Below, piece by piece: positions 1,893-15,588 of a stretch of DNA of 64,000 nucleotides. The stretch spans positions 697 to 64,696 of the forward strand of contig JANMVM010000106.1 in assembly GCA_031392695.1 (NCBI GenBank), written 5' to 3'. A model generated the notes under the pieces. It saw only the letters and a program-made list of their open reading frames with translations, did not search any database and was not told the origin of the DNA. The first letter of the stretch is position 1; every line of letters starts with the position of its first letter. This DNA is from Rubrivivax sp. Its GTDB lineage: Bacteria; Pseudomonadota; Gammaproteobacteria; Burkholderiales; Burkholderiaceae_C. The translations under genes were made by a program, and so were the position numbers.

Positions 1893-2555
1893 TCAGCCCG
1901 CCAGCCGCCGCTGCAATTGCGCGCCCAGGCGCTGTGCCGCTTCGTCCCAGGTCGTGGCCACACCGATGCGGCGCAGGTCCACCGTCTGCAGCCCCGCATA
2001 GCCGCAGGGGTTGATGCGCGCAAACGGCTCCAGGTCCATGGCCACGTTCAGGGCCAGGCCGTGATAACTGCGGTGCTGGCTGACCTTGATGCCCAGTGCC
2101 GCGATCTTGGCCAGGCCCTGGAACGGGTCCACGCTGGCCGGCTGCAGCACGGCGTGGCCGAAGGGGTCGGCCAGCCGCACGTAGATGCCCGGCGCCGTGC
2201 GCACGCGGTGGCCGGTCACGCCGTAGCCGGCCAGGGTGTCGATGAGCGCCGCTTCGATGCGAAAGACAAATTCCTTGACGTAGATCGAGAGCCGCCGCAG
2301 GTCGACGAGCGGGTAGGCCACCACCTGCCCGGGGCCGTGGAAGGTGACCTGGCCGCCACGGTCGGTGCGCACGACGGGGATGTTGCCGGCGGCCAGCACG
2401 TGTTCTTCGCGGCCGGCCACGCCCTGGGTGAAGACGGGGTCGTGCTCGACGAGCCAGAGCTCGTCCTCGGTGTCGGCGCTGCGCGCCGCGGTGAAGGCGC
2501 GCATCGCGGCTTCGACTTCGGCGTAGGGGCGGCGGCCCAGGACTCGGGTGTGCAT
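1893..2555 (-). CDS. lipB: Lipoyl(octanoyl) transferase
   Basis: Motifs [39 protein letters not shown]. Confidence 0.95.
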
Positions 2556-2788: not shown

Positions 2789-3973
2789 TCAGATGATGTT
2801 GACTTCGAGCAGCGGCCGGCCGTCGAGCAGGCGTTGCGGCGACAGCGCGGTGAGCGCCGGCGCGCTGCTGCTGCCACCGGCAATCAGCGCCGCCAGTGCG
2901 CTGCCCACCGCTGGCGACTGCTGCATGCCATGGCCCGAGAAGCCGCAGGCCGTGTAGGCGTTGCGCCAGGGCGGCAGAGCACCGGCCAGGCCGTTGTGGT
3001 CGAAGGCGTTCATCTCGTAGTAGCCGGCCCAGGCCGAGCGCACGCGCAGCGCTTCGAAGGCCGGCACGCGCGCGGCCAGCGCCGGCCAGATGAAGTCGTC
3101 GAAAAGGCCGTGGTCGATGTCGTCCAGCGGTGGCTCGTCGGGGTCGCCGGGCCAGGGCTGGCGCGGCGGCGCGCCAGCCAGGTAGCACCCGCCGCTGCGG
3201 CCCTCGGGCCGGAACCACACCCCCGACGGATCGATGACCAGCGGGCAACCGGGCAGCCGCGCCGGCGAGTCGATCACGAACACGTCGCGCTTCTTGGCAT
3301 GCACCGGCAGCCGCAGGCCGAGTCTCGCCGACAGCGGCGCCGACCAGGCGCCGGCGGCCAGCACCACGGCATCGGCATCGAAGCGGCGGCCGTCGCGGCA
3401 CAGCACGGCCTGCACGGCATCGCCGGCGGTGGCAAAGCCCACCGCATCGGCCTTCACGAAACGCGCACCGCAGGCGATGGCCTTGCGCCGAAAGGCCTGC
3501 AGCAGCGCCGGGCCGTCGAACCAGCCTTCGCCGGCCAGGCCGAGCGAGCCCAGGGCAAGGTCAGCCGCCACCAGCCAGGGAAATCGCGCCTGCAGTTCAG
3601 ACGGGCTCAGCAAGGCAACATCGGCTCCAGCACCGACTTGCACCGCGTGATTGGCGCGCATCACGGCAGCGCCGGTGGCACCGGCCAGGTACAGGTACCC
3701 GGGCTCGACGAGGCCCAGATCGGGCGCCTGGCCGTCGACCGCCAGTTCCTCGCCGACACGGCGCAGGAAGGCCAGGCTCCATTGCGACAAGGCCATATTG
3801 GCCGGCTGCGAGAACTGCTGCCGGATGGAGCTGGCCGACAGCGCGCTGGACGCGCGGGCATAGGTGGGGTCACGCTCCAGCACCGTGGCCGCCAGGCCAT
3901 GGTCGCGTGCCAGGAAGCAGGCCGTGGCCGCACCCATCACGCCGCCACCCACGATCACCACGCCAGACTTCAT
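2789..3973 (-). CDS. FAD-dependent oxidoreductase (DAO / sarcosine oxidase beta / FOXRED1-like)
   Basis: Rossmann motif IVGGGVMG, ASSALSASSIRQQF, WAGYYEMNAFDHNG, GFSGHGMQQSPAVG. Confidence 0.9.
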   Translation of the reverse strand: MKSGVVIVGGGVMGAATACFLARDHGLAATVLERDPTYARASSALSASSIRQQFSQPANMALSQWSLAFLRRVGEELAVDGQAPDLGLVEPGYLYLAGATGAAVMRANHAVQVGAGADVALLSPSELQARFPWLVAADLALGSLGLAGEGWFDGPALLQAFRRKAIACGARFVKADAVGFATAGDAVQAVLCRDGRRFDADAVVLAAGAWSAPLSARLGLRLPVHAKKRDVFVIDSPARLPGCPLVIDPSGVWFRPEGRSGGCYLAGAPPRQPWPGDPDEPPLDDIDHGLFDDFIWPALAARVPAFEALRVRSAWAGYYEMNAFDHNGLAGALPPWRNAYTACGFSGHGMQQSPAVGSALAALIAGGSSSAPALTALSPQRLLDGRPLLEVNII

Positions 3974-4013
3974 GGCCGCAGTGTAGGCAGGTGCTGCACC
4001 TGCCCGCGCCGGG

Positions 4014-4979
4014 CTACCTGCAGGCGTTGGCCGCCGTGTACTCCACCACCTTGAGCTTGCCGCTGATGATGTCGGCCCTGGCAGCTTCGACCTGCTGGCG
4101 CATGGCCGCGCTGACGAGCCTGGCGTTGTGCTCGTCCATGGCGTAGTCCAGGCCGCCCTCTTTCAGGCCCAGCGCGGTGATGCCCGGGGTCACGCCCTTG
4201 AAGGCCTGGTAGACCGCGAGATCGGTGCGCTTGACCATGCTCGTGAGCACCGATCCCGGGTGCAGATGGTTCTGGTTGCTGTCGACGCCGATGCTCAGCC
4301 GGCCTGCGTCGGCGGCCGCCTGCATGATGCCCAGCCCAGTGGTGCCGGCAGCGGCGAAAACGACGTCGACGCCACGCGCCATCTGCGCCTTGGTGAGTTC
4401 GGCGCCGCGCGCGGGGTCGGTCCAGGCGGCGGGCGTGGTGCCGGTCATCGATGAGATGACCTCGACCGCGGGCCGCGCGTACTTTGCGCCCTGCTCGTAG
4501 CCGCACAGGAACTTGCGCACCAGCGGGATGTCCATGCCGCCGACGAAACCCACCTTGCCGGTCTTGCTGGCCAATGCGGCCAGCATGCCGACGAGGAAGC
4601 TGCCTTCCTGCTCGCGGTAGACGAAGCTCTGCACGTTGGGCAGCGCCACCACCATGTCGATGATGGCGAAGCGCTGGTTCGGGAAGTCCCGCGCCACGGC
4701 CTCGATGCTGCTGGCCTGCGGAAAACCGATGCCCACCACCGGGTTGGCGCCGCGCTGGGCAAAGCGACGCGCTGCCTGCTCGCGCTGCGCCGCGTTCTGG
4801 ACCTCGAATTCGAGGTAGGGCTTGCCGGTCTCCTTCTTCCAGCGCTCGGCGCCTTGCCAGGCGGCCTGGTTGAAGGACTTGTCGAACTTGCCGCCGAGCT
4901 CGAAGATCACGGCCGGTTGCGCTTGCGCCCCACCCACGGCGAGCAGCCCCGCCACGGCCCACCCGCGCGCCGCCCCCAT
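4014..4979 (-). CDS. BMP/PnrA-family periplasmic substrate-binding protein (nucleoside-type)
   Basis: GGKFDKSFNQAAWQG, FVGGMDIP, GVDSNQN, LTSMVKR motifs. Signal peptide present, no lipobox Cys. Confidence 0.9.
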   Translation of the reverse strand: MGAARGWAVAGLLAVGGAQAQPAVIFELGGKFDKSFNQAAWQGAERWKKETGKPYLEFEVQNAAQREQAARRFAQRGANPVVGIGFPQASSIEAVARDFPNQRFAIIDMVVALPNVQSFVYREQEGSFLVGMLAALASKTGKVGFVGGMDIPLVRKFLCGYEQGAKYARPAVEVISSMTGTTPAAWTDPARGAELTKAQMARGVDVVFAAAGTTGLGIMQAAADAGRLSIGVDSNQNHLHPGSVLTSMVKRTDLAVYQAFKGVTPGITALGLKEGGLDYAMDEHNARLVSAAMRQQVEAARADIISGKLKVVEYTAANACR

Positions 4980-4984
4980 CTCAG

Positions 4985-5052
4985 TACCGCCCGGCCGTCC
5001 CGAAGGGACTGAACGCCCCCTCGGGGGGCCGCGAACGAAGTGAGCTTGGGGG
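4985..5052. repeat. GC-rich REP-like interspersed element
   Basis: Nested short hairpins (GTCCC-GAA-GGGAC; CCCCC-TC-GGGGG) ending GTGAGCTTGGGGG. Resembles an interspersed repeat family I recall from Burkholderiales; not database-verified. Confidence 0.5.
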
Positions 5053-5059
5053 TTTCATT

Positions 5060-7345
5060 TCAGAACATCGCCTTGAACTGCACGCCGAAGGTGCGCGGCT
5101 CGTTGATGAAGCCGGTGAGGTTGTTGAAGTCGATGCCGCCGACGACGCGGATCTGGTTGCCAATGTTGCGCACGAAGGCTGCCACGTCGTACTTGCCGGC
5201 GCCCCACTGGTAGCCCACGCGCAAGCCGCCTTCGGTCATCGCCTTGCCGGTGAATTCAGTCGACTCGTAGAGGAAGAAATTGACCTGGCTGCGGTAGACC
5301 CAGTCGGTGAAGACGTAGAGGTCGCCGCTGCCCACCGGCTGCGTGTACTTGAGCGTGAAGTTGGCCGTCGTCCTGGGCGCCTGCGGCAGCGGGTTGCCAT
5401 TGATCAGCGCCACCGTCGAGCCGCCCACCGTGCGCGTCGGGTTGGTCACCGTGCAGGCCGCGCACACCGCCACCGCCAGGTTGCCGTCCTGGATCTGGGT
5501 GTCGTTGTAGCCCACGCCCACGGTGGCCAGCAGCTGGTCGGTGACGTAGGCCTGGAAGTCGAGCTCGAAGCCCTGGCCCTTGGCCTTCTTGGCGCTGAGC
5601 AGGATGTTGGCGTTGGCCGCGCCACCCACGGCCGTGAGCTGCAGGTCCTTGACGGTGTAGCTGAAGACGTCGAAGGCCACGCGTGCGCGGCGGTTGAAGA
5701 GGTCGGCCTTGATGCCGACTTCGACCGAGGTGTTGTTCTCGGGCCCGGCCACCGACTGGTTGTTGAAGGCCCCCGCGCCCTGCACGCTGGAAGCGCGGAA
5801 GCCCGTGCCGGCGCGCGCGTACAGCGTGGTCAGCTTGTCCAGCGCGTAGGTGCCGCTCAGGTCCCAGTTGAGCTTGTTGTCGCTGGGCGACGCGGTCAGC
5901 GGCCCTTGCGCCGCCAGTTGCGCCAGCGTGCACTTGGCCGACAGCACGCAAGGCACGAAGCCGCTGTTGGAATAGTCCTCGACCGAGAACTCTTTCTTGT
6001 CGCGCGTGTAGCGCAGGCCGCCGCGCAGCTTGAAGTCGGGCGTCAGGGCCAGGTTGACGGCGCCGAACACGGCCACCGCGCTGTTCTTCTGGCGCACGCG
6101 CTCGTAGCCGTCTTGCTTGCTGCCGGCCAGCGAGTCGTAGCTGAAGCTCTCGATTCTGTAGTCCTCATCGAAGAGGAAGACACCGCCCTGCCAGCTGAGC
6201 GCGCCCGCGGTGTCGGACTCGAGCCGCAGCTCTTGCGTGAACTGCCGGTGCTTGGGGATGCCGTCGGCCGACTCCGATGCGAAAGGGATGTTGCCGGGCC
6301 CGAAGTTGCCGGCGCCCAGGAAGCTGGCGCCATAGCCGCCGTCGATGTCACCGCGGCTGTAGGTGCGCACGGTCTCCAGGCCGGTGACGGAGTACAGCGC
6401 CACCCGCCCCAGGCCGATGCGCAGGCGCAGGTTGCCGCCGTAGTTCTGCAGCTCCGAGGTGTTCTGGCCGTCGAATGAAATCTTGCGTTCGTCGAAGCCG
6501 CTCACCAGCTCGTTGCTGCCGGGCTTGATGATGTTGGCGCGGAACAGCCGCGCCGAGCCCTTGAAGTCGCGCGCGTGCAGGTTGGCCAGGGCACTGAAGT
6601 CGGGGCCCGATTCGTAGCGCAGTTGCGCGCGCATGGCGTTGTCGCGGTAGCCTTCGAGGTCCTTGCTGGGGCTCGTGGCCACGGTGTTCTTGACCCAGTC
6701 GTCACGCGTCTGGCTCAGCACCGACAGGCGCATCGACAGGCCCTGCCCCAGCGGCACCGTGGCCGCGCCCTCGGCGTTGAGGGTGCGGAAGGTGCCGATC
6801 GAGATGCTGCCGTAGCCTTCGGCTGTCTTGCCGGGCTTGACGGAGTCGAACTTGACCACGCCGGCCGGCGTGTTGCGACCGAACAGCGTGCCCTGCGGGC
6901 CACGCAGCACCTCGACGCGGTCGATGTCGAAGATCGGGAAGCCCTTGAGGATCGGGTTCTCCTGCACCACGTCGTCGTAGACCAGCGACACCGGCTGCGA
7001 GGCGTTGAGCCGGAAGTCGGTGTTGCCGTAGCCGCGGATGTAGAAGCGCGGGAAGGCGCGGCCGAAGGACGACTCGATGTTCAGGCTCGGCACGCGGCCG
7101 CTGAGCGCGCGCACGTCCTGGCCGCTGGTGCCCAGCACCTCGAGGATCTCACCCTGCAGCGCGGTCACCGAGCTGGGCACATCGCGGATGTTCTCGACGC
7201 GGCGGTCGGCGGTCACGGTGACCACCTGCAACTCGCCCGCCGGCGTCGTCTGGGCCTGCGCACCCACTTGCAGCAGCGCCAGCACGGCGGCTGCCACGGC
7301 ATGGTGCGGATGGGCGATGAAGCGACGGCGGGCTGGGTTGTTCAT
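5060..7345 (-). CDS. TonB-dependent receptor
   Basis: TonB-box-like VVTVTADRR, plug motif IDRVEVLRGPQGTLFGRNTPAG, terminal PRTFGVQFKAMF. Start set at MNNPARRR (7345) after a GGAGA RBS. Confidence 0.95.
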   Translation of the reverse strand: MNNPARRRFIAHPHHAVAAAVLALLQVGAQAQTTPAGELQVVTVTADRRVENIRDVPSSVTALQGEILEVLGTSGQDVRALSGRVPSLNIESSFGRAFPRFYIRGYGNTDFRLNASQPVSLVYDDVVQENPILKGFPIFDIDRVEVLRGPQGTLFGRNTPAGVVKFDSVKPGKTAEGYGSISIGTFRTLNAEGAATVPLGQGLSMRLSVLSQTRDDWVKNTVATSPSKDLEGYRDNAMRAQLRYESGPDFSALANLHARDFKGSARLFRANIIKPGSNELVSGFDERKISFDGQNTSELQNYGGNLRLRIGLGRVALYSVTGLETVRTYSRGDIDGGYGASFLGAGNFGPGNIPFASESADGIPKHRQFTQELRLESDTAGALSWQGGVFLFDEDYRIESFSYDSLAGSKQDGYERVRQKNSAVAVFGAVNLALTPDFKLRGGLRYTRDKKEFSVEDYSNSGFVPCVLSAKCTLAQLAAQGPLTASPSDNKLNWDLSGTYALDKLTTLYARAGTGFRASSVQGAGAFNNQSVAGPENNTSVEVGIKADLFNRRARVAFDVFSYTVKDLQLTAVGGAANANILLSAKKAKGQGFELDFQAYVTDQLLATVGVGYNDTQIQDGNLAVAVCAACTVTNPTRTVGGSTVALINGNPLPQAPRTTANFTLKYTQPVGSGDLYVFTDWVYRSQVNFFLYESTEFTGKAMTEGGLRVGYQWGAGKYDVAAFVRNIGNQIRVVGGIDFNNLTGFINEPRTFGVQFKAMF

Positions 7346-7386
7346 GGAGTCTCCGGTGTGAAAGTTGGGGCTTCGATGCAAGGGCC

Positions 7387-7428
7387 ATGCCGAATGCCGA
7401 ATGCGGCATGCCGAATGCCGAATGCCAC
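7387..7428. repeat. Heptamer tandem repeat (ATGCCGA-like x6)
   Basis: ATGCCGA ATGCCGA ATGCGGC ATGCCGA ATGCCGA ATGCCAC in the divergent promoter region between the TBDR and the dioxygenase. Confidence 0.85.
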
Positions 7429-7546
7429 GATTCACGGCCTGGCCCGTGGCCGCACGGCGTTAGCATTGATGATGCAGCCCCGCGCCCCGGGGTTCGTGAA
7501 AATGCCACCCGACGCGTCGCGCCTGATGCCGCCGCGCAACACCTCC

Positions 7547-8386
7547 ATGCTCAGCACCGCCCAGATTGCCGCCTGGCACCGCGACGGCTTCCTCACGCTG
7601 CCCGGCTTCAAGCCGGCGGCCGAGCTGGAAGCGGCCAAGGCGCACGCGCGCGCACTCGTCGAGGCCTTCGATCCGGCGCAGGGCGCCAGCCGCTTCTCCA
7701 CGCGCGACCGCAACAAGGTGGCCGATGCGCGGCTGCTGGCTTCGGCCGACCAGGTGCACTGCTTCTTCGAGGAAGAGGCGCTCGACGACGAAGGCCGGCT
7801 GCTGGTGCCCAAGGCGCGCTCGATCAACAAGATCGGCCATGCGCTGCACGACCGCGACCCGGTGTTCGATCGCTTCAGCCACGGCCCGGCGCTGGCCGAT
7901 CTGGCGGCCGACCTGGGCTTGCTGCAGCCCCAGGTCTGGCAGAGCCAGCTCATCTTCAAGCAGCCGCACATCGGCGGCGAGGTGGGCTGGCACCAGGACG
8001 CCAGCTTCTTCGTCACCGACCCGATCACCGTCACCACCCTGTGGTTCGCGCTCGAAGACGCGACGCTGGACAACGGCTGCCTGTGGGTCGAGCCCGGCGG
8101 CCACCGCGGCCCGCTGCGCGAGCAGTACCGCTGCGAGCAGGGCCGCCTGAGCATGCAGGCCCTCGACGCCACGCCTTGGCCCGACAGCGCCAGCGCCCGG
8201 CCCCTGCCCGTGGCCGCCGGCACGCTGGTCGTCTTTCATGGCCTGCTGCCGCACTACAGCGCCAGCAACCGCTCGGCGCACTCACGGCTGGCCTACACGC
8301 TGCACGTCACCGACGCCACGGCGGCGTATTCGCCACTGAACTGGCTGCAGCGCGGCCCGGCCCTGCCCGTACGCGGGCTGGCCTAG
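7547..8386 (+). CDS. PhyH-family Fe(II)/2-oxoglutarate dioxygenase
   Basis: IFKQPHIGGEVGWHQD (HxD), NGCLWVEPGGH, HGLLPHYS (distal His). Start set at MLSTAQ. Confidence 0.9.
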   Translation: MLSTAQIAAWHRDGFLTLPGFKPAAELEAAKAHARALVEAFDPAQGASRFSTRDRNKVADARLLASADQVHCFFEEEALDDEGRLLVPKARSINKIGHALHDRDPVFDRFSHGPALADLAADLGLLQPQVWQSQLIFKQPHIGGEVGWHQDASFFVTDPITVTTLWFALEDATLDNGCLWVEPGGHRGPLREQYRCEQGRLSMQALDATPWPDSASARPLPVAAGTLVVFHGLLPHYSASNRSAHSRLAYTLHVTDATAAYSPLNWLQRGPALPVRGLA

Positions 8387-8553
8387 GAGCGAGGGCGGCA
8401 GAAAGTCTGCACCTTGTAGCGGCCACCGGTGCGCTTGTCGACCTCGCACGCATCAGCGTCGATGGCCACGCCCTGGTGCGAGTTCTGGCCCACCGAGATG
8501 CTGATCCTGATTGCCGTCTGGGCCAGCGCGGCGGCGCGGCGGCTGAGGTTGAT
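8383..8553 (-). pseudogene. Remnant of a TRAP transporter DctP substrate-binding protein (N-terminal stub)
   Basis: Minus frame reads INLSRRAAALAQTAIRISISVGQNSHQGVAIDADACEVDKRTGGRYKVQTFCRPRS*. This matches the DctP N-terminus pattern (ISISxxQNSHQGVAID..EVxKRT.GRYKxQTF) and then stops. Confidence 0.65.
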
Positions 8554-8611
8554 GGCGGGGGTCTTTGTGGGCTTGTCTGCCGGGGGGTCTGCCGAGCGAT
8601 GCGTGGTGCTA

Positions 8612-8633
8612 GCGTATCTTTCGCGTATCTTTC
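8612..8633. repeat. Exact 11-bp tandem duplication upstream of urc1
   Basis: GCGTATCTTTC x2, plus a partial third copy. Confidence 0.85.
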
Positions 8634-8660
8634 GCGCTTTCGCCCCCGGTATCCTCCGCC

Positions 8661-9926
8661 ATGGAAAGTGTTCCCCCGACAGGTCAGGCCAGCGGTCACA
8701 TCCGGCTCACCTCGCACCCCGGCCAGGGCCCGGCCGGCGCGCCGGCGATCCGCTGGGGCGCGGCCACGGCACTTGAGCGCGGCCCCGTGGTGGGCACCAC
8801 CGCCAACCGCAGCCAGCGCAACGTCATCGGCACCCACAGCGGCAGCTACGGCGTTTACCGCGCGCTGGCGGTGGCCGCCGGCAGCCTGACGCGCGGTCAC
8901 CGCGCCGACCTCACCGACACCGCGCCGACCGACCTCGTGGGCCCGTACCCGCAGTGGAGCGACGCCACCAAGATGGTCTCCATCGACCCCTGGGGCGCCA
9001 GCGTGCAGAGCGTGTTTGCCCAGGCCCTGGCGCTGGGCTACGACATCCGCCCCACGATCGCCGTCACCAAGGCGCACATCCACCTGCCCGAGATCAAGCA
9101 GGCGCTGGCCTTCCAGCGCCTGGCCATCGACGGCCAGGTGCTGCTCGACGATGCCAGCGCCACCGTCACCAAGGTGGCGCTGGAGCCGGTGTGGTGGCTG
9201 CCCGGCGTGGCCGCGCGCTTCAAGGTCAGCGAGGCCGACCTGCGCCGCGCCTTGTTCGAGGAAACCGGCGGCATGTACCCCGAGCTCGTGACGCGCAGCG
9301 ACCTCGAGGTCTTCCTGCCGCCCATCGGCGGCCAGACGTTGTACGTGTTCGGCAACATCCGCGACCTCGCCGATCCGGCCGTCACGCTCACCGCGCGCGT
9401 GCACGATGAATGCAACGGCTCGGATGTCTTCGGCTCCGACATCTGCACCTGCCGGCCCTACCTCACGCATGCCATCGAGGAATGCATCCGCGGCGCGCAG
9501 GCCGGCGGCGTCGGGCTCATCGCCTACAGCCGCAAGGAAGGCCGCGCCCTGGGCGAGGTCACCAAGTTCCTGGTCTACAACGCGCGCAAGCGCCAACTCG
9601 GCGGCGACAGCGCCGACAAGTACTTCCTGCGTACCGAGTGCGTGGCCGGGGTGCAGGACATGCGCTTCCAGGAGCTCATGCCCGACGTGCTGCATTGGCT
9701 GGGCATCCGCAAGATCCACCGCCTGGTGAGCATGAGCAACGACAAGTACGACGCCATCACGGGCAGCGGCATCGAGGTCGGCGAGCGCGTGCCGATCCCG
9801 GACGCGCTGATCCCGGCCGACGCCAAGGTGGAGATGGAAGCCAAGATCGCCGCCGGCTACTTCACCGACGGCAGCGTGCCCACCAGCGCCGATCTCGCTC
9901 GTGTGCTGGGGCGTGGCCTTGAGTGA
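8661..9926 (+). CDS. GTP cyclohydrolase II-like protein, URC1/UrcA (UTP cyclohydrolase) type
   Basis: Long N-terminal extension (IRWGA...RGPVVGT...RNVIGTHSGSY) plus Zn motif RVHDECNGSDVFGSDICTCR (C-X10-C-X-C) and EGRALGEVTK. Adjacent to URC4 and upp. Confidence 0.88.
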   Translation: MESVPPTGQASGHIRLTSHPGQGPAGAPAIRWGAATALERGPVVGTTANRSQRNVIGTHSGSYGVYRALAVAAGSLTRGHRADLTDTAPTDLVGPYPQWSDATKMVSIDPWGASVQSVFAQALALGYDIRPTIAVTKAHIHLPEIKQALAFQRLAIDGQVLLDDASATVTKVALEPVWWLPGVAARFKVSEADLRRALFEETGGMYPELVTRSDLEVFLPPIGGQTLYVFGNIRDLADPAVTLTARVHDECNGSDVFGSDICTCRPYLTHAIEECIRGAQAGGVGLIAYSRKEGRALGEVTKFLVYNARKRQLGGDSADKYFLRTECVAGVQDMRFQELMPDVLHWLGIRKIHRLVSMSNDKYDAITGSGIEVGERVPIPDALIPADAKVEMEAKIAAGYFTDGSVPTSADLARVLGRGLE

Positions 9927-11328
9927 GCCCTTGAAGTCCCCGGCCTCGGCCCACCCGCTGGCCCCGCTGCACGACCCGGCCACCATCCGTGCCCGCTGCG
10001 CCGGGCTCCTGCGCGCCGTGGAGCAGGACCTGAGCCCGAGCTTCAAGCTCGACCGCAGCCGCCTGCCGGCGCTGGCCGACCGCGTCGCCGCGCTCACGCT
10101 GCGACGCTTCCCGACGCTGGAGATCCCGTATCACAGCCGCTGGCGCCACTTCGAAGCCGGTGGCGTGGACCGCAAGGCCGAACTCGACCAGCGCCTGGCC
10201 GGCCGCAGCGCGGCCGAGGTGGCGCGCGTGCACTTCGACCTCACGGTGGTGAGCGTGCTGCTCGACGCCGGCGCTGGTGCCCACTGGCAGTACAGCGAGA
10301 GCACGCCGCTGAGCGCAGCGGCGCTGCCGCAGGCCGCGCCCGACGAGCTGCTGGCGCTGCTGGCGAAGGCCGCCTCGGCGCCAGCCCAGCCGGCGCTGGC
10401 AGCGGCAACGCCGTTGCCCGAAGGTGCGCTGCCCGCCCAACGCTACCAGCGCAGCGAAGGCCTCGGGGTGGCCAGCTTCCGCGCCTTTATGGCCGGCGCT
10501 TTCTCGGCCACGCCAGGCGACCCGCAACGCGCCGACGCCGCGGCGCTGCGCCACGTCGACGCCGCCGCGCTGCGCGCCATCTTCCAGAGCAGCCCGAGCA
10601 ATCCGATGGTGGGCCTCGAAGGCCGCGCCAGCCTGCTTGCCCGGCTCGGCGCCGCGCTGCAGCAGGAGGCGGCGCTCGACACCGCCCGCGGCCTGCCGGC
10701 CCAGGCGCGGCCGGGGCTGCTGTTCGACCGCGTCACCGGCTACGGCAAGCGCACCGAAGTGCAGGCCGCCGAGGTGCTGGGGGAGGTGCTGCGTTCGCTG
10801 TCGCCGATCTGGCCCAGCGGCAGCAAGGTGCAGGGCCTGGCGGCCGGCGACGTGTGGCCGCACCTGTGGGCCGGCGCCGCGATCGGTGGCGGCCGGCTCG
10901 ACCACACCACCGACGGCTGGGTGCCCTTTCACAAGCTCAGCCAGTGGATGACGTATTCGCTGCTCGAGCCGCTGCAGTGGGCCGGCATCCGGGTCAGCGG
11001 CCTGGATGCGCTGACCGGCCTGCCCGAGTACCGCAACGGCGGCCTGCTGATCGACGGCGGCGTCATCGTGCCGCGACACGCGGGCCTGCTGGCGCGCACC
11101 TGGAAGCCGCGCGACGAGCTCGTCATCGAGTGGCGCGCCCTGACCGTGCTGCTGCTCGACGAACTGGCGGTGCTGGTGCGCTCGCGCCTGGGCAAGACCG
11201 CTGAGGAACTGCCGCTGGCCTGCATCCTGGAGGGCGGCACCTGGGCCGCCGGGCGCGAGATCGCGCAGGAGCTGCGCGCCGACGGCTCGCCGCCGCTGCT
11301 CATTGAAAGCGACGGCACGATCTTCTGA
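9919..11328 (+). CDS. URC4/Urg3 (DUF1688) family protein
   Basis: [61 protein letters not shown] motifs. Start codon uncertain (TTG 9919 or GTG 9901). Confidence 0.85.
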
Positions 11329-11449
11329 GGCGGCGGCGGCGTCGACCGGCCGGGGGCGACGTGGCGATGTGGCACCATCGCCGCGGAAGACACGGCGGCC
11401 GCCGATGACCGACGAGGTCAGCCCGGCCGCCGCTCCAGGAGCCCGCCCC

Positions 11450-12085
11450 ATGACCCAGCCCATCGTCCACGTCGTCAGCCATCCGCTGGTCCAGCACAAG
11501 CTCACGCTGATGCGCCAGAAAGATCTGAGCACGAGCAGCTTCCGCCGCCTGCTCTACGAGTTGAGCATGCTCATGGCCTACGAGGTCACGCGCGACATGC
11601 CGACCCAGCTGGTCGAGATCGAGACGCCGCTGGAGAAGATGATGTCGCCGGTGATCGAGGGCCGCAAGACGGTGTTCGTGGTCATCATGCGCGCCGGCAG
11701 CGGCTTCCTCGACGGCATGCTCGAGGTCGTGCCCGGCGCCCGCGTCGGCCACGTCGGCCTCTACCGCGACCCCAAGACCCTGGTGGCGGTGGAGTACTAC
11801 TTCAAGATGCCGCACGACATGCATGAGCGCGACGCCATCGTGCTCGACCCGATGCTGGCCACCGGCAACTCCGCCGTGGCGGCGGTGGAGCGGCTGAAGG
11901 AAACCCACCCGCGGTCGATCCGCTTCGTCAGCCTGCTGGCGGCGCCCGAGGGCCTGAAGAAGTTCCACCAGGCCCACCCCGACGTGGCGGTCTACACCGC
12001 GGCCATCGACCGCGAGCTCAACGACCACGGCTACATCGTGCCCGGGCTGGGTGACGCGGGCGACCGCCTCTTCGGCACCAAGTGA
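11450..12085 (+). CDS. upp: Uracil phosphoribosyltransferase
   Basis: [13 protein letters not shown] motif [37 protein letters not shown] before ATG 11450. Confidence 0.95.
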
Positions 12086-12100
12086 GCGCGACGCTCAGGG

Positions 12101-12140
12101 GCGCTCATCTGCGCTGACGTGCGCTGACGTGCGCTCACCT
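12101..12140. repeat. 10-bp tandem repeat x4
   Basis: GCGCTCATCT GCGCTGACGT GCGCTGACGT GCGCTCACCT between the convergent upp and ybeY stop codons. Confidence 0.8.
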
Positions 12141-12599
12141 GCGATAAGGATCGGCGATCTTCATCGCCAACAGGATCTCGCTCTCGCGCGCTTCCATGAC
12201 CGCCGCCTCGGCCTCGGTCTGGTGATCGAAGCCCTGCGCGTGCAGCGTGCCGTGCACCAGCAGGTGGGCATAGTGATCGGCCAGCGGCAGACGCTGCTGG
12301 CGCGCCTCCCGTGCCACCACCGGCGCGCACAGGATCAGGTCCGCCAGCACCAGCGGCGCATGCTGGTAGTCGAAGGTCAGCACATTCGTGGCGTTATCCT
12401 GCTGCCGGTAGTCACGGTTGAGCCGGCGGCCTTCCGCGGCACCGACGATGCGCACCGTGATCTGCGCCGGGTGCGCCAGCGCCGCGCGCACGCAGCGCAG
12501 CACGCGGTGGCGCGGCAGGTGCTCGCGGTGGCTGGCGTCGGCAAACTGCAGCGACAGTTGCAGCTCGGGCTTCATCGCGGGCCTCATCGCTGGCCTCAT
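12135..12599 (-). CDS. ybeY: rRNA maturation endoribonuclease
   Basis: [24 protein letters not shown] (H-x3-H-x5-H). ATGA overlap with phoH. Confidence 0.95.
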
Positions 12600-13651
12600 C
12601 GCAGGCGGGATGCCCTGGCGTCGCCCCCCGCCGTGCCGTCCGCGCCGTCAGCCGCGGCTTCGCCCAGGCGCGCGTGGTCGTAGGCATTGACGATGCGCGC
12701 CACCAGCGGGTGGCGCACCACGTCGGCGGCGGTGAAGTGCGTGAAGGCGATGCCGCTGACGCCCTGCAGCACGTGCTGCGCGTCGACGAGCCCGCTGGCC
12801 ATGCCCTTGGGCAGGTCGATCTGGCTCACGTCCCCGGTGACCACGCATTTGCTGCCGAAGCCGATGCGCGTGAGGAACATCTTCATCTGCTCGCGCGTGG
12901 TGTTCTGCGCCTCGTCGAGGATCACGAAGGCGTGGTTGAGCGTGCGCCCGCGCATGAAGGCCAGGGGCGCGATCTCGATCAGGCCCTTGTCGAAGGCCTT
13001 GGTGACGCGGTCGAAGCCCATCAGGTCGTACAGCGCGTCGTACAGCGGACGCAGATAGGGGTCGACCTTTTGCGCCAGGTCACCAGGCAGGAAGCCCAGT
13101 CGCTCGCCGGCCTCGACCGCCGGCCGCGTGAGCACGATGCGCTGCACGCCGTGACGCTCCAGCGCGTCGACGGCACAGGCCACGGCGAGAAAGGTCTTGC
13201 CGGTGCCGGCCGGCCCGATGCCCAGCGTGATGTCGTGCTGCAGCATCTGCTGCAGGTACAGCACCTGGTTGGGCGTGCGGCCGCCGAGATCGGCATGGCG
13301 GGTGTGCAGCACGATGGGCTCGCTGGTACCGCCCGTGGTACCGCCCGTGGTGGCGCCCGTGGTGGCGCTGGTGCCAGGTGCAGCGCCGCCGGCCGGCGCC
13401 GTGGCGTGGGCCAGCATCAGTTGCAGCGCGCGCTCGCCGATCGGGCTGGCCGCCTTGGCGTAGAGCCCGTCGAGCACGGCTGCTGCGCGGTCGACCGCGT
13501 CACCCGGGCCCTGGATGCGAAACGTGGCGTCGCGGCGCAGCAGGATCACGCCCAGCGTGGACTCGACGGCGCGCAGGTGCGCGTCGAGCGGGCCGCAAAC
13601 GTGGGCCAGGCGGCGGTTGTCGGGCTCGGCGAAGGTGTGGCGTCGGATCAA
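12596..13651 (-). CDS. phoH: PhoH-family ATPase (YbeZ-like)
   Basis: GPAGTGKT Walker [27 protein letters not shown]. Probable TTG start (MIRRHTF). Confidence 0.93.
13325..13372. repeat. 12-bp in-frame tandem repeat x4 inside phoH linker
   Basis: GGTACCGCCCGT x2 followed by GGTGGCGCCCGT-like copies, encoding a [16 protein letters not shown] linker. Confidence 0.8.
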
Positions 13652-13740
13652 GGCGATGGCAATTAACGCACGGGCTGGCATTGTGGCAGCGCCGGCACGG
13701 CCGGCTGCCGTGGCGAGCGCCATGCAGAATCCGCCGCACG

Positions 13741-15588
13741 ATGCTGCGCGCGCTTCTCACGGTCTGCTGGCTGGCCCTGGGCCTGCTGCATGGCAGCACG
13801 TCGGCGCAGTCGGTGCAGTCGGTGCAGATCGTCAGCGCGCTCACCGCGCCTGGTGAGGGTTCGTCGTTTCCGCAGGGGGTGCCCACCCGCACCGTGACCC
13901 TGCCCGACCGCTGGAGCGATTCGCGGCCGGACTTCTCGGGCACGCTGTGGTACCGCGTCGCCTTCCAGGCGCCGACGCTGGCGGTGGCCGGCGAGCTGAT
14001 CGCGCTGCACATCGAGCACGTGTGCAGCAACCTCGAGGTCTATGTCAACGGCCACCTCGTGCACAGCGGCGGCCGCATGGCCGCGCCGCTGACCAACAAC
14101 TGCAACCAGCCTCAACTCGTGGCCTTGCCGCAGGCCGTGCTCAGGCCTGAAGGCAATGTGCTCGACATCAAGGTCGCCGGCCAGGGCCAGGCCGGCACGG
14201 GATCGCGCCTGCGCGCCGGCGGCCTGTCGGCGCTGACGCTGGCGCCGCAGTCCGAACTGGTGGCGCGCCACAACCGGCAGGTGGCGCTGCAGGTCAATGC
14301 ACCGCAGGCGGTGAGCGCGACGCTGCTGCTCACCGGCGGCTTCATGTTCGTGCTGGGTTTCATCAACCGGCGCGAAAGTCACCTCGCCTACTTTGGCGCG
14401 TTGTGCGTGGGCTGGGCGCTCGAGAACTCGCGGCTGTGGATGCGCAACGGGCCGCTCGGCCACACCGCGGTGGAGTTCCTGGTTTGCGCCATGCTGGGCT
14501 TCATCACCTGGGCTGCGGTGCAGTTCCTGTTGCGCTATGCCGGTGTGCGCTACCGCTGGGTCGATCGCGCGCTGCCGCTGCAGTGCGCGCTGCTGGCCCT
14601 GTCGCTGTTGGTCGCCGGATCGACCCGCGTGCACCTGGTGGCCACGCTGTGGTACCTGGTGCTGGCGGCAGAGGTCGCGGCGGCTTCGGTGTGGCACCTG
14701 CGGCGGCGCTGGCACACGCGATCGGTGTGGTTGATGGCCGCCATCCTGGGCACCGTGGCGCTGGCCGGCCTGATCGAATTCGCCGTCCAGTGGGCCCATG
14801 CGCCGCCCATGGCGGCCCACCTGGCCGAACTCGTAGTGCCGGTGATCTTCGTGCTCGTGGGGCTGCGGCTGGTGCAGCAGCACGGCCACGCGCTGCACCA
14901 GGCCGAACAGGGCAAGTTGCTGCTCGAGCAGCGGGTGCGCGAGGCCACGGCCGAGATCGAACGCAACTTCCGCCAGATGTCGGAGCTGCGCGTCGAGCAG
15001 GTCACCGAGCGTGAACGCAAGCGCATCGCCGCCGATCTGCACGACGACCTCGGCGCCAAGCTGCTGACCATCGTGCACACGAGCGAGTCCGAGCGCATCT
15101 CGACGCTGGCGCGCGAGGCGCTCGAAGAGATGCGGCTGTCGGTGCGTGGCCTCACGGGCCGGCCGGTGCGCCTGGCCGATGCGCTGGGCGACTGGCGCGC
15201 CGAGGTCATCGCGCGCTTGGCGCAGGCCGGCATCGAGGGCGGCTGGGACGCGCCCGAAGACCTGCCGCAGACGCTGAGCGCGCGTGCCTACGTGCAGACC
15301 ACGCGCATCCTGCGCGAGGCCACCAGCAACGTCATCAAGCACAGCGGCGCCAGCAGCTGCAGCGTGACCGCGGGCATTGCCGACGGCGACTTCCAGCTCA
15401 TCGTGCAGGACAACGGCGACGGCATCTCGAGCGAGATCGACGGCCGCCTGGACCGCGGCCACGGCCTGGCCAGCATGAAGAACCGTGCCAAGCAGTTACA
15501 AGGCCAGTGCCTGGTCGAGAGCGGGCCCGGGTATGGAACCGTGATACGTCTCACAGTTCCGCTGGATCGCGCCACCGCCCACTCATGA
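13741..15588 (+). CDS. Membrane sensor histidine kinase (periplasmic beta-sandwich + multi-TM + HisKA_3/HATPase)
   Basis: Signal peptide, [17 protein letters not shown] jelly-roll-like segment, ~7 hydrophobic helices, [15 protein letters not shown]-box, VQDNGDG and GHGL ATPase motifs. Confidence 0.9.

Follow-up and report, generated by a model that had tools for sequence, protein, structure and literature searches.

Two separable gene modules in Rubrivivax: a receptor-BMP/PHYHD1-type dioxygenase unit beside a URC operon, with a possible link through 2'-O-methyl nucleosides

In freshwater bacteria of the genus Rubrivivax (order Burkholderiales), a divergent gene pair for a TonB-dependent outer-membrane receptor and a PHYHD1-type dioxygenase often lies next to the URC1, URC4 and upp genes for uracil catabolism. 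We analyzed this arrangement in a stretch of 64,000 nucleotides from contig JANMVM010000106.1 of a Rubrivivax sp. (hereafter the window; G+C content about 70%), in which seven genes occupy positions 2789 to 12085 between the core genes lipB (1893–2555, minus strand) and phoH (12596–13723, minus strand). A first reading of the bare sequence (the original prediction) had taken the seven genes for a single pathway that imports modified nucleosides or bases, strips off the modification with the help of two oxidative enzymes and feeds uracil into URC-type ring opening. Open reading frame and profile searches recovered all seven genes at or near the positions given there, and likewise the divergent layout, with a minus-strand run for the receptor, a BMP-family binding protein and a flavoprotein facing away from a plus-strand run for the PhyH-family dioxygenase, URC1, URC4 and upp. 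The idea as a whole is partly supported by our analysis. Two separable modules lie side by side here, an arrangement specific to the genus: one consists of the receptor and BMP genes with the divergent dioxygenase gene (module A), the other of URC1-URC4-upp (module B). We give a probability of roughly one half to the reading that these two act in series, module A scavenging and demethylating 2'-O-methyl nucleosides and module B converting uracil to urea.

The dioxygenase is central to this reading. Its gene (plus strand, start at 7526 or 7547, end at 8386) encodes a predicted cytoplasmic Fe(II)/2-oxoglutarate-dependent enzyme of 279–286 residues that belongs to the PhyH family (PF05721, 9e-44). 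Human PHYHD1 (PDB 2OPW) is matched by residues 2–275 with an E value of 3e-62 (against human residues 4–286, 43–45% identity) and the second-best match in the PDB reaches only 4e-15, so that the protein is a full-length PHYHD1 homologue and not just another member of the PhyH family. According to the available text of a report published in December 2025, enzymes of the PHYHD1 family demethylate free 2'-O-methyl ribonucleosides to the plain nucleoside and formaldehyde and are inactive on nucleotides and RNA; activity is described there for human, fish, mouse, fly, fungal, plant and viral enzymes and for FJS-like bacterial enzymes, the latter forming a group more distant from PHYHD1 (Stonkus et al., Nucleic Acids Res 2025; PMC12709175). 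The enzyme from the window shares 42% identity with the active tobacco enzyme and 36% with the active enzyme from Fadolivirus, but only 22–28% with three FJS-like bacterial enzymes tested in that report. It belongs, as a bacterial protein, to the PHYHD1-proper clade, whereas the tested bacterial enzymes with which we compared it are of the FJS type. The likeness to the characterized demethylases extends to the residues of the active site. The iron-binding triad HxD...H and the arginine for 2-oxoglutarate (His149, Asp151, His236 and Arg247, corresponding to His156, Asp158, His246 and Arg257 in the human protein) are present in all 81 orthologues, and the five contacts to ribose and base proposed from docking (Lys95, His98, Gln132, Trp266 and Phe154; human Lys102, His105, Gln139, Trp277 and Phe161) are kept in 80–81 of these 81. 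Human Ser154, proposed in the same report to favor purines (PMC12709175), is replaced by glycine in the window. Judged from sequence, the protein is a likely 2'-O-methyl-ribonucleoside demethylase, and the original guess of a demodifying oxygenase, now resting on PHYHD1 homology and conserved active-site residues, was well founded. The further claim that modified nucleosides are stripped stands insofar as the dioxygenase is a probable methyl remover and has to be amended with respect to the position attacked, as the methyl group would likely sit on the ribose 2'-O and not on the base. In one genus genome a PhyH orthologue (G540:C6:1751737–1752695) is present in two overlapping pieces (residues 1–146 and 109–279) adjoining an intact URC4, which suggests a frameshifted pseudogene.

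Within the genus, the dioxygenase and receptor genes form a close partnership. When loci were anchored on PhyH and enough upstream sequence was available, a divergently oriented receptor gene was present in 51 of 54 and a BMP gene in 46 of 54. Among 41 sampled relatives, 24 of which belong to the genus, the receptor occurs in 10 of 11 genomes with PhyH and in none without. The URC genes were found downstream of PhyH in 29 of the 32 loci with sufficient downstream sequence, directly adjacent in 12. Across 128 genus genomes, each at least 90% complete, PhyH and URC4 occur together in 65, PhyH alone in 3, URC4 alone in 42 and neither gene in 18; URC4 is accordingly present in 65 of 68 PhyH-containing and 42 of 60 PhyH-free genomes (odds ratio 9.3, Fisher p 9e-5, uncorrected for phylogeny). 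The two modules are found apart in four genomes (G024, G015, G440 and G524); in the first two of these, the divergent receptor/PhyH pair and the URC genes are situated on different contigs, that of the pair being large. In view of the 51 of 54 pairings and of the pairs that stand apart from URC, the receptor and PhyH genes are the more tightly bound unit, with URC a neighbour that is frequently present but can be dispensed with.

The binding protein of module A (321 residues; 4014–4979, minus strand; PF02608, 8e-57) is an orphan periplasmic protein of the nucleoside-type BMP/PnrA family. Its closest solved structure is Lbp (PDB 7X0R, 2.6e-48), which was crystallized with guanosine. The motifs AIID, GVD and SMVK retain the Asp, Asp and Lys to which the BmpA study assigned ribose binding, and of the aromatic sandwich the Phe of SFN is kept and the second residue is Trp. 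In its Bmp domain, in these three ribose-binding residues and in the aromatic sandwich the protein resembles the binding components of the BMP/PnrA ATP-binding cassette (ABC) transporters (T. pallidum PnrA/TmpC, B. burgdorferi BmpD/BmpA, C. thermocellum Lbp), from which it differs in its orphan status downstream of a gene for a TonB-dependent receptor and in the exchange of one sandwich Phe for Trp with a short insertion, a feature that it shares with a canonical paralogue. This paralogue, 74% identical, is encoded in the same genome, on contig C313, beside an ABC ATPase with two domains, and contig C89 carries two BMP-type permeases, cdd for cytidine deaminase, a phosphorylase of the PNP/UDP family, deoC and a deoA-like gene. 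The locus itself contains no permease or ATPase gene for the binding protein, which sets it apart from systems encoded together with their own transport components. Given a 74% identical paralogue in a canonical nucleoside ABC and catabolic cluster, the orphan protein appears to be a recent duplicate of a nucleoside-binding protein that can plausibly use the permease of that cluster. Its original assignment as a nucleoside-type BMP protein thus holds. The nucleoside cluster is split over C313 (1–3816) and C89 (1–10000), and frames resembling type I restriction-modification genes, recognized by eye, lie at the broken ends, so that either an insertion into the operon or a problem of assembly joining may be responsible.

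The receptor (761 residues; 5060–7345, minus strand) combines a signal peptide, a TonB box (LQVVTVTA), a plug (9.5e-16), a 22-strand barrel domain (6.9e-29) and a C-terminal Phe, and thus has the hallmarks of a TonB-dependent receptor. Its true start is the ATG at 7345 and not at 7435. The spacer between receptor and dioxygenase (7346–7525) contains the direct repeat CATGCCGAATGCCGAATGC in two copies at about 7388–7428; conservation of this repeat does not extend to the spacers of other species, and a comparison of 58 such spacers brought out no non-coding motif common to them.

Module B is the already known bacterial URC operon and ordinary in its core. URC1 (421 residues; 8661–9926, plus strand) has the domains GTP_CH_N (1.6e-79) and GTP_cyclohydro2, scores 767 bits against NF005536 and exhibits the zinc motif C-x10-C-x-C, visible as CNGSDVFGSDICTC. 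It matches PDB entries 7EJ3 and 7EEV, which we take to be structures of the bacterial UTP cyclohydrolase UrcA, over its full length (residues 2–420, E 2e-214). UrcA was reportedly characterized as a UTP cyclohydrolase by Zhang, Wei, Lin and co-workers in ACS Catal in 2021. The study that characterized the UTP cyclohydrolase (Zhang et al., ACS Catal 2021) is reference 14 in the available text of PMC12507026. Ring opening of UTP is therefore the predicted reaction of the URC1-type enzyme from the window. The gene for URC4 (DUF1688; 475 residues; 9901–11328, plus strand; PF07958, 2e-134), which is named "URC4/urg3 family protein" at NCBI, overlaps the end of URC1, and upp (URC6) for uracil phosphoribosyltransferase adjoins on the same strand, with a likely start at 11450 in a frame open from 11303 and an end at 12085 (about 211 residues; PF14681, 1e-75; TIGR01091, 273 bits); this is the gene order of a bacterial URC operon. 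The same three genes are neighbours in 18 of 19 loci found in 16 further genera of the Pseudomonadota, a phylum in which DUF1688 is sparse (21 of 401 sampled genomes). With URC1, URC4 and upp in one run, the core is like the URC pathway described by Lachancea kluyveri URC1, URC4 and URC6 and by bacterial UrcA, without differences. Compared with the URC genes of some other bacteria and of yeast, the locus lacks urea amidolyase and 3-hydroxypropionate dehydrogenase and would rely on a urease that is encoded elsewhere in the same genome. The original prediction was right about the presence of the URC trio; the extended pathway that it regarded as undescribed has at its core an established operon with a URC1 whose homologue is already assigned as a UTP cyclohydrolase.

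A sequence search of the PDB returned no match for URC4, and the literature on bacterial DUF1688 yielded nothing beyond the papers on yeast. An AlphaFold2 model with a predicted local distance difference test (pLDDT) value of 88, submitted to Foldseek, retrieved as its top 11 matches exclusively Qng1/DUF2419 queuosine-5'-phosphate N-glycosylases (E 1.7e-7 to 8e-6, template modeling (TM) scores 0.71–0.78), and the next match has an E value above 1. Qng1 is the sole PDB fold matched (TM up to 0.78); the identity between the two proteins is only 14–16%, URC4 is about 150 residues longer, and whereas Qng1 acts on queuosine monophosphate the substrate of URC4 would be ribosylurea or its phosphate. 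Ribosylurea builds up in yeast urc4 mutants. A fold match confined to Qng1 fits the cleavage of the N-glycosidic bond in a ribosyl-urea product, and from the model URC4 is a predicted N-glycosidase that would free urea from (phospho)ribosylurea. Genes situated between URC4 and upp are seen in sister species, namely one for an MmyB-like helix-turn-helix regulator, a candidate regulator of URC (L030:11421–12371, L044:16947–17744 and L060:15206–16018), and one for a flavoenzyme of the NMO family (nitronate monooxygenase-like) at three loci that do not contain the PhyH module (L020:11676–13013, L021:9296–10486 and L022:8350–9432).

If the two modules indeed act in series, the following sequence of events can be envisaged. 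At the outer membrane, the receptor would capture the few free nucleosides available, among them 2'-O-methylated ones derived from RNA debris. The orphan BMP protein would bind them in the periplasm and, as suggested by its 74% identical paralogue, pass them on to the nucleoside ABC permease and ATPase whose genes lie on contigs C313 and C89. In the cytoplasm, the dioxygenase would hydroxylate the 2'-O-methyl substituent using Fe(II), 2-oxoglutarate and O2, giving formaldehyde and an ordinary nucleoside, an activity known for the family only. Cytidine deaminase, nucleoside phosphorylase and nucleoside hydrolase from elsewhere in the genome, where an IU-nucleoside hydrolase is encoded in addition to the genes on C89, would bridge the gap to uracil. 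Upp would convert uracil to UMP, phosphorylation would lead to UTP, the URC1-type UTP cyclohydrolase would open the uracil ring, URC4, as a putative N-glycosidase with a Qng1-like fold, would release urea from the ribosyl-urea product, and urease would finally yield ammonia. Published enzymology exists for the dioxygenase family and for the first URC step; what we infer are the roles in uptake, the sharing of the ABC permease, the reaction of URC4 and a coupling between the modules.

A number of observations weigh against this scheme. Intervening genes, one or more, split PhyH from URC1 in the remaining 17 of the 29 linked loci, and URC is missing downstream of the receptor/PhyH pair in three loci (L057, L061 and L080). 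The odds ratio given above ignores kinship, and linked genes can be lost jointly. Outside the genus, no URC or BMP gene was detected within about 10 kb of PhyH orthologues at 14 loci (59–67% identity), among which those with informative titles come from Inquilinus, Roseateles, Pelomonas, Inhella, Aquabacterium and Rhodoferax; only one of the 14 showed a weak partial receptor match about 9.5 kb away, and in Inquilinus the orthologue lies divergent to an MFS transporter gene and has no nucleoside genes in its vicinity. Conversely, none of the 19 URC loci from 16 other genera has a PhyH, TonB-receptor or DAO gene as a neighbour. In a sample of 400 genomes from the phylum, PhyH orthologues occur in 10 and URC4 in 20, and a single genome contains both PhyH and URC4, at a distance of 2.1 Mb. 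The receptor reaches no family cut-off in NCBIfam and has no characterized or close solved relative in the PDB, and in the binding protein no pocket difference from the canonical paralogue was apparent at the residues checked, the Trp and the insertion included. Finally, no cis-element shared by the two modules was found in 58 receptor/PhyH spacers and 40 URC1 loci.

The control regions are informative in this respect. A conserved core, GCGTATCTT(C/T), precedes URC1 by 30–50 nucleotides in 34 of 40 loci, regardless of which gene lies upstream. In the window the GCGTATCTTTC box is tandemly duplicated at 8612–8633 (plus strand, about 30–50 nucleotides upstream of URC1) and includes a -10-like TATCTT. 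The box is present in only 1 of 58 receptor/dioxygenase spacers and absent from that of the window. Being conserved irrespective of the preceding gene, it is likely the URC operon's own promoter (-10) or operator. This speaks for a pair of adjacent modules and against a pathway organized like an operon, and together with a PhyH/receptor-URC link that is confined to one genus it led us to abandon the single seven-gene pathway as originally proposed. A scan for consensus promoters and terminators in the locus gave nothing above shuffled expectation, no Rfam match was obtained in the receptor/dioxygenase spacer, and no riboswitch was detected in the locus.

It is a real possibility, though not the one we favor, that the modules are neighbours by descent without any functional coupling and that the lipB-phoH interval is a variable region in which accessory genes gather. 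The receptor, the BMP protein and the PHYHD1-type enzyme would then serve the general uptake of nucleosides or of another nutrient and a housekeeping turnover of 2'-O-methyl nucleosides, and URC would serve uracil catabolism. The unrelated inserts of many kinds that distinguish the interval between species (an AAA+TPR gene, hemerythrin, a hydrolase, MmyB-type regulators, NMO, a peroxidase and a lectin) are as expected on this assumption, and so are the four genomes and three loci in which the modules stand apart, the conserved box that URC1 does not share with module A and the lack of any PhyH/receptor-URC co-occurrence outside the genus. On the other hand, the modules have stayed adjacent in dozens of genomes at species level, although the genes between them have turned over heavily, URC4 has been retained in nearly all genomes with PhyH (65 of 68), and the biochemistry connects, since the demethylase would produce ordinary pyrimidine nucleosides and URC consumes uracil. 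Moreover, some URC operons outside the genus are located close to nucleoside genes, among them those for a BMP-type permease, cdd, a phosphorylase, deoC and phosphopentomutase, which lends independent support to a link between URC and the use of nucleosides. The URC trio has no universal partner gene across the genera examined; only nucleoside genes and genes for ABC or TctC transport turn up repeatedly, and these now and then. A different cargo for module A is very improbable in our view. The imported compound would in this case be, for example, a vitamin, a cofactor or a metal chelate, and the PhyH-family enzyme would hydroxylate it. Siderophores, vitamin B12 and similar compounds are classic substrates of TonB-dependent receptors. 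The best NCBIfam match of the receptor is indeed a siderophore-receptor subfamily, albeit with 98 bits against a cut-off of 223; some proteins of the BMP family bind other ligands, the protein studied here weakly matching a putative B6 binding protein (66 versus 400 bits), and the substrates of PhyH-family enzymes are diverse. Such an assignment is hard to reconcile with a binding protein that is so closely related to that of a nucleoside ABC cluster and has kept the ribose-binding residues, and with a dioxygenase whose homology to PHYHD1 spans the entire protein and in which none of the proposed ribose-contact residues is missing.

The flavoprotein (394 residues; 2789–3973, minus strand; PF01266, 5e-53) decides on the most extended version of the pathway, in which it would join the dioxygenase in stripping modifications, for example N-methyl groups, from imported bases or nucleosides before they enter URC. 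We consider this improbable. The gene lies 40 bp downstream of the BMP gene on the same strand and has been retained at the locus by four related species. Its product falls into the amine-oxidizing DAO family as a FOXRED1/sarcosine oxidase-like FAD oxidoreductase, finds its best PDB matches in proline dehydrogenase, sarcosine oxidase and glycine oxidase (1e-23 to 1e-20), shows weak similarity to oxidases of sarcosine and N-methyltryptophan as well as to the oxidoreductase domain of MnmC, and has relatives labeled FOXRED1-like at JGI. Against a role in the pathway, it stays below every equivalog cut-off of NCBIfam (N-methyltryptophan oxidase, 64.5 versus 257 bits; soxB, 53 versus 529 bits); as far as can be judged by sequence comparison, it has the general DAO fold and belongs to no defined oxidase family. 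It occurs in only 5 of the 54 PhyH-anchored loci. Orthologues of at least 65% identity are encoded in about 35 of the 128 genus genomes, yet at this locus in 4 (G000, G483, G510 and G491) and on other contigs in about 30; they are about equally frequent in genomes with and without PhyH (21 of 68 and 14 of 60, respectively), and those of 73–75% identity follow a TRAP transporter or lie in other unrelated contexts. Its presence at the locus in 4 of 128 genomes and elsewhere in some 30 makes the flavoprotein probably a bystander or an accessory gene outside the system, and the even distribution and unrelated surroundings of its orthologues indicate that it most likely entered the variable lipB-phoH interval recently. 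Of the co-occurrence that had been anticipated for all seven families, the receptor and the dioxygenase thus remain as a conserved pair, the URC link holds in one genus only, and the flavoprotein, originally thought to be a pathway enzyme, drops out as it does not accompany the other genes. A Twister-sister ribozyme match inside its coding sequence (3410–3493, minus strand; 28.9 bits, below the gathering score of 34; E 0.009) was rejected as a probable chance hit.

Action of the two modules in series, the reading that we prefer, would have wider biological implications. 2'-O-methyl nucleosides are resistant to the ordinary nucleoside-cleaving enzymes, and to our knowledge the only demethylase for them is the one reported in December 2025. 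The available text of that report contains neither a bacterial gene context nor a physiological role in bacteria (PMC12709175), and the pairing with an outer-membrane receptor and a nucleoside-binding protein described here provides the enzyme with a concrete gene context. Rather speculatively, the receptor, the BMP protein and the PHYHD1-type dioxygenase could together provide a high-affinity pathway dedicated to the recovery of free 2'-O-methylated ribonucleosides from water, a proposal that we regard with more doubt than confidence. If it were true, a TonB-dependent receptor and its binding protein would have a modified nucleoside as their substrate, a case that we did not find in the literature; our search likewise returned no paper in which a TonB receptor and a BMP protein act together on nucleosides. 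A substrate class could then be named for an orphan family of TonB-dependent receptors, the bacterial PHYHD1-proper clade would gain its first physiological context, and environmental bacteria would be seen to harvest the breakdown products of modified RNA actively, freshwater bacteria being able to use methylated RNA debris as a source of nitrogen and pyrimidines via the adjoining URC operon. The idea is directly testable because the same locus is carried by cultured relatives, namely Rubrivivax rivuli KYPY4 and strains AAP65 and AAP51.

Two further genes in the surroundings deserve mention. In Rubrivivax rivuli (L041), the insert between PhyH and URC1 is a gene for an AAA+TPR protein of 964 residues (10881–13775) with a MalT-like region, which may be a regulator; its N-terminal 230 residues are without a match in Pfam. 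In the window, a protein with a PEP-CTERM sorting signal is encoded at 1160–1777 on the plus strand, just past lipB.

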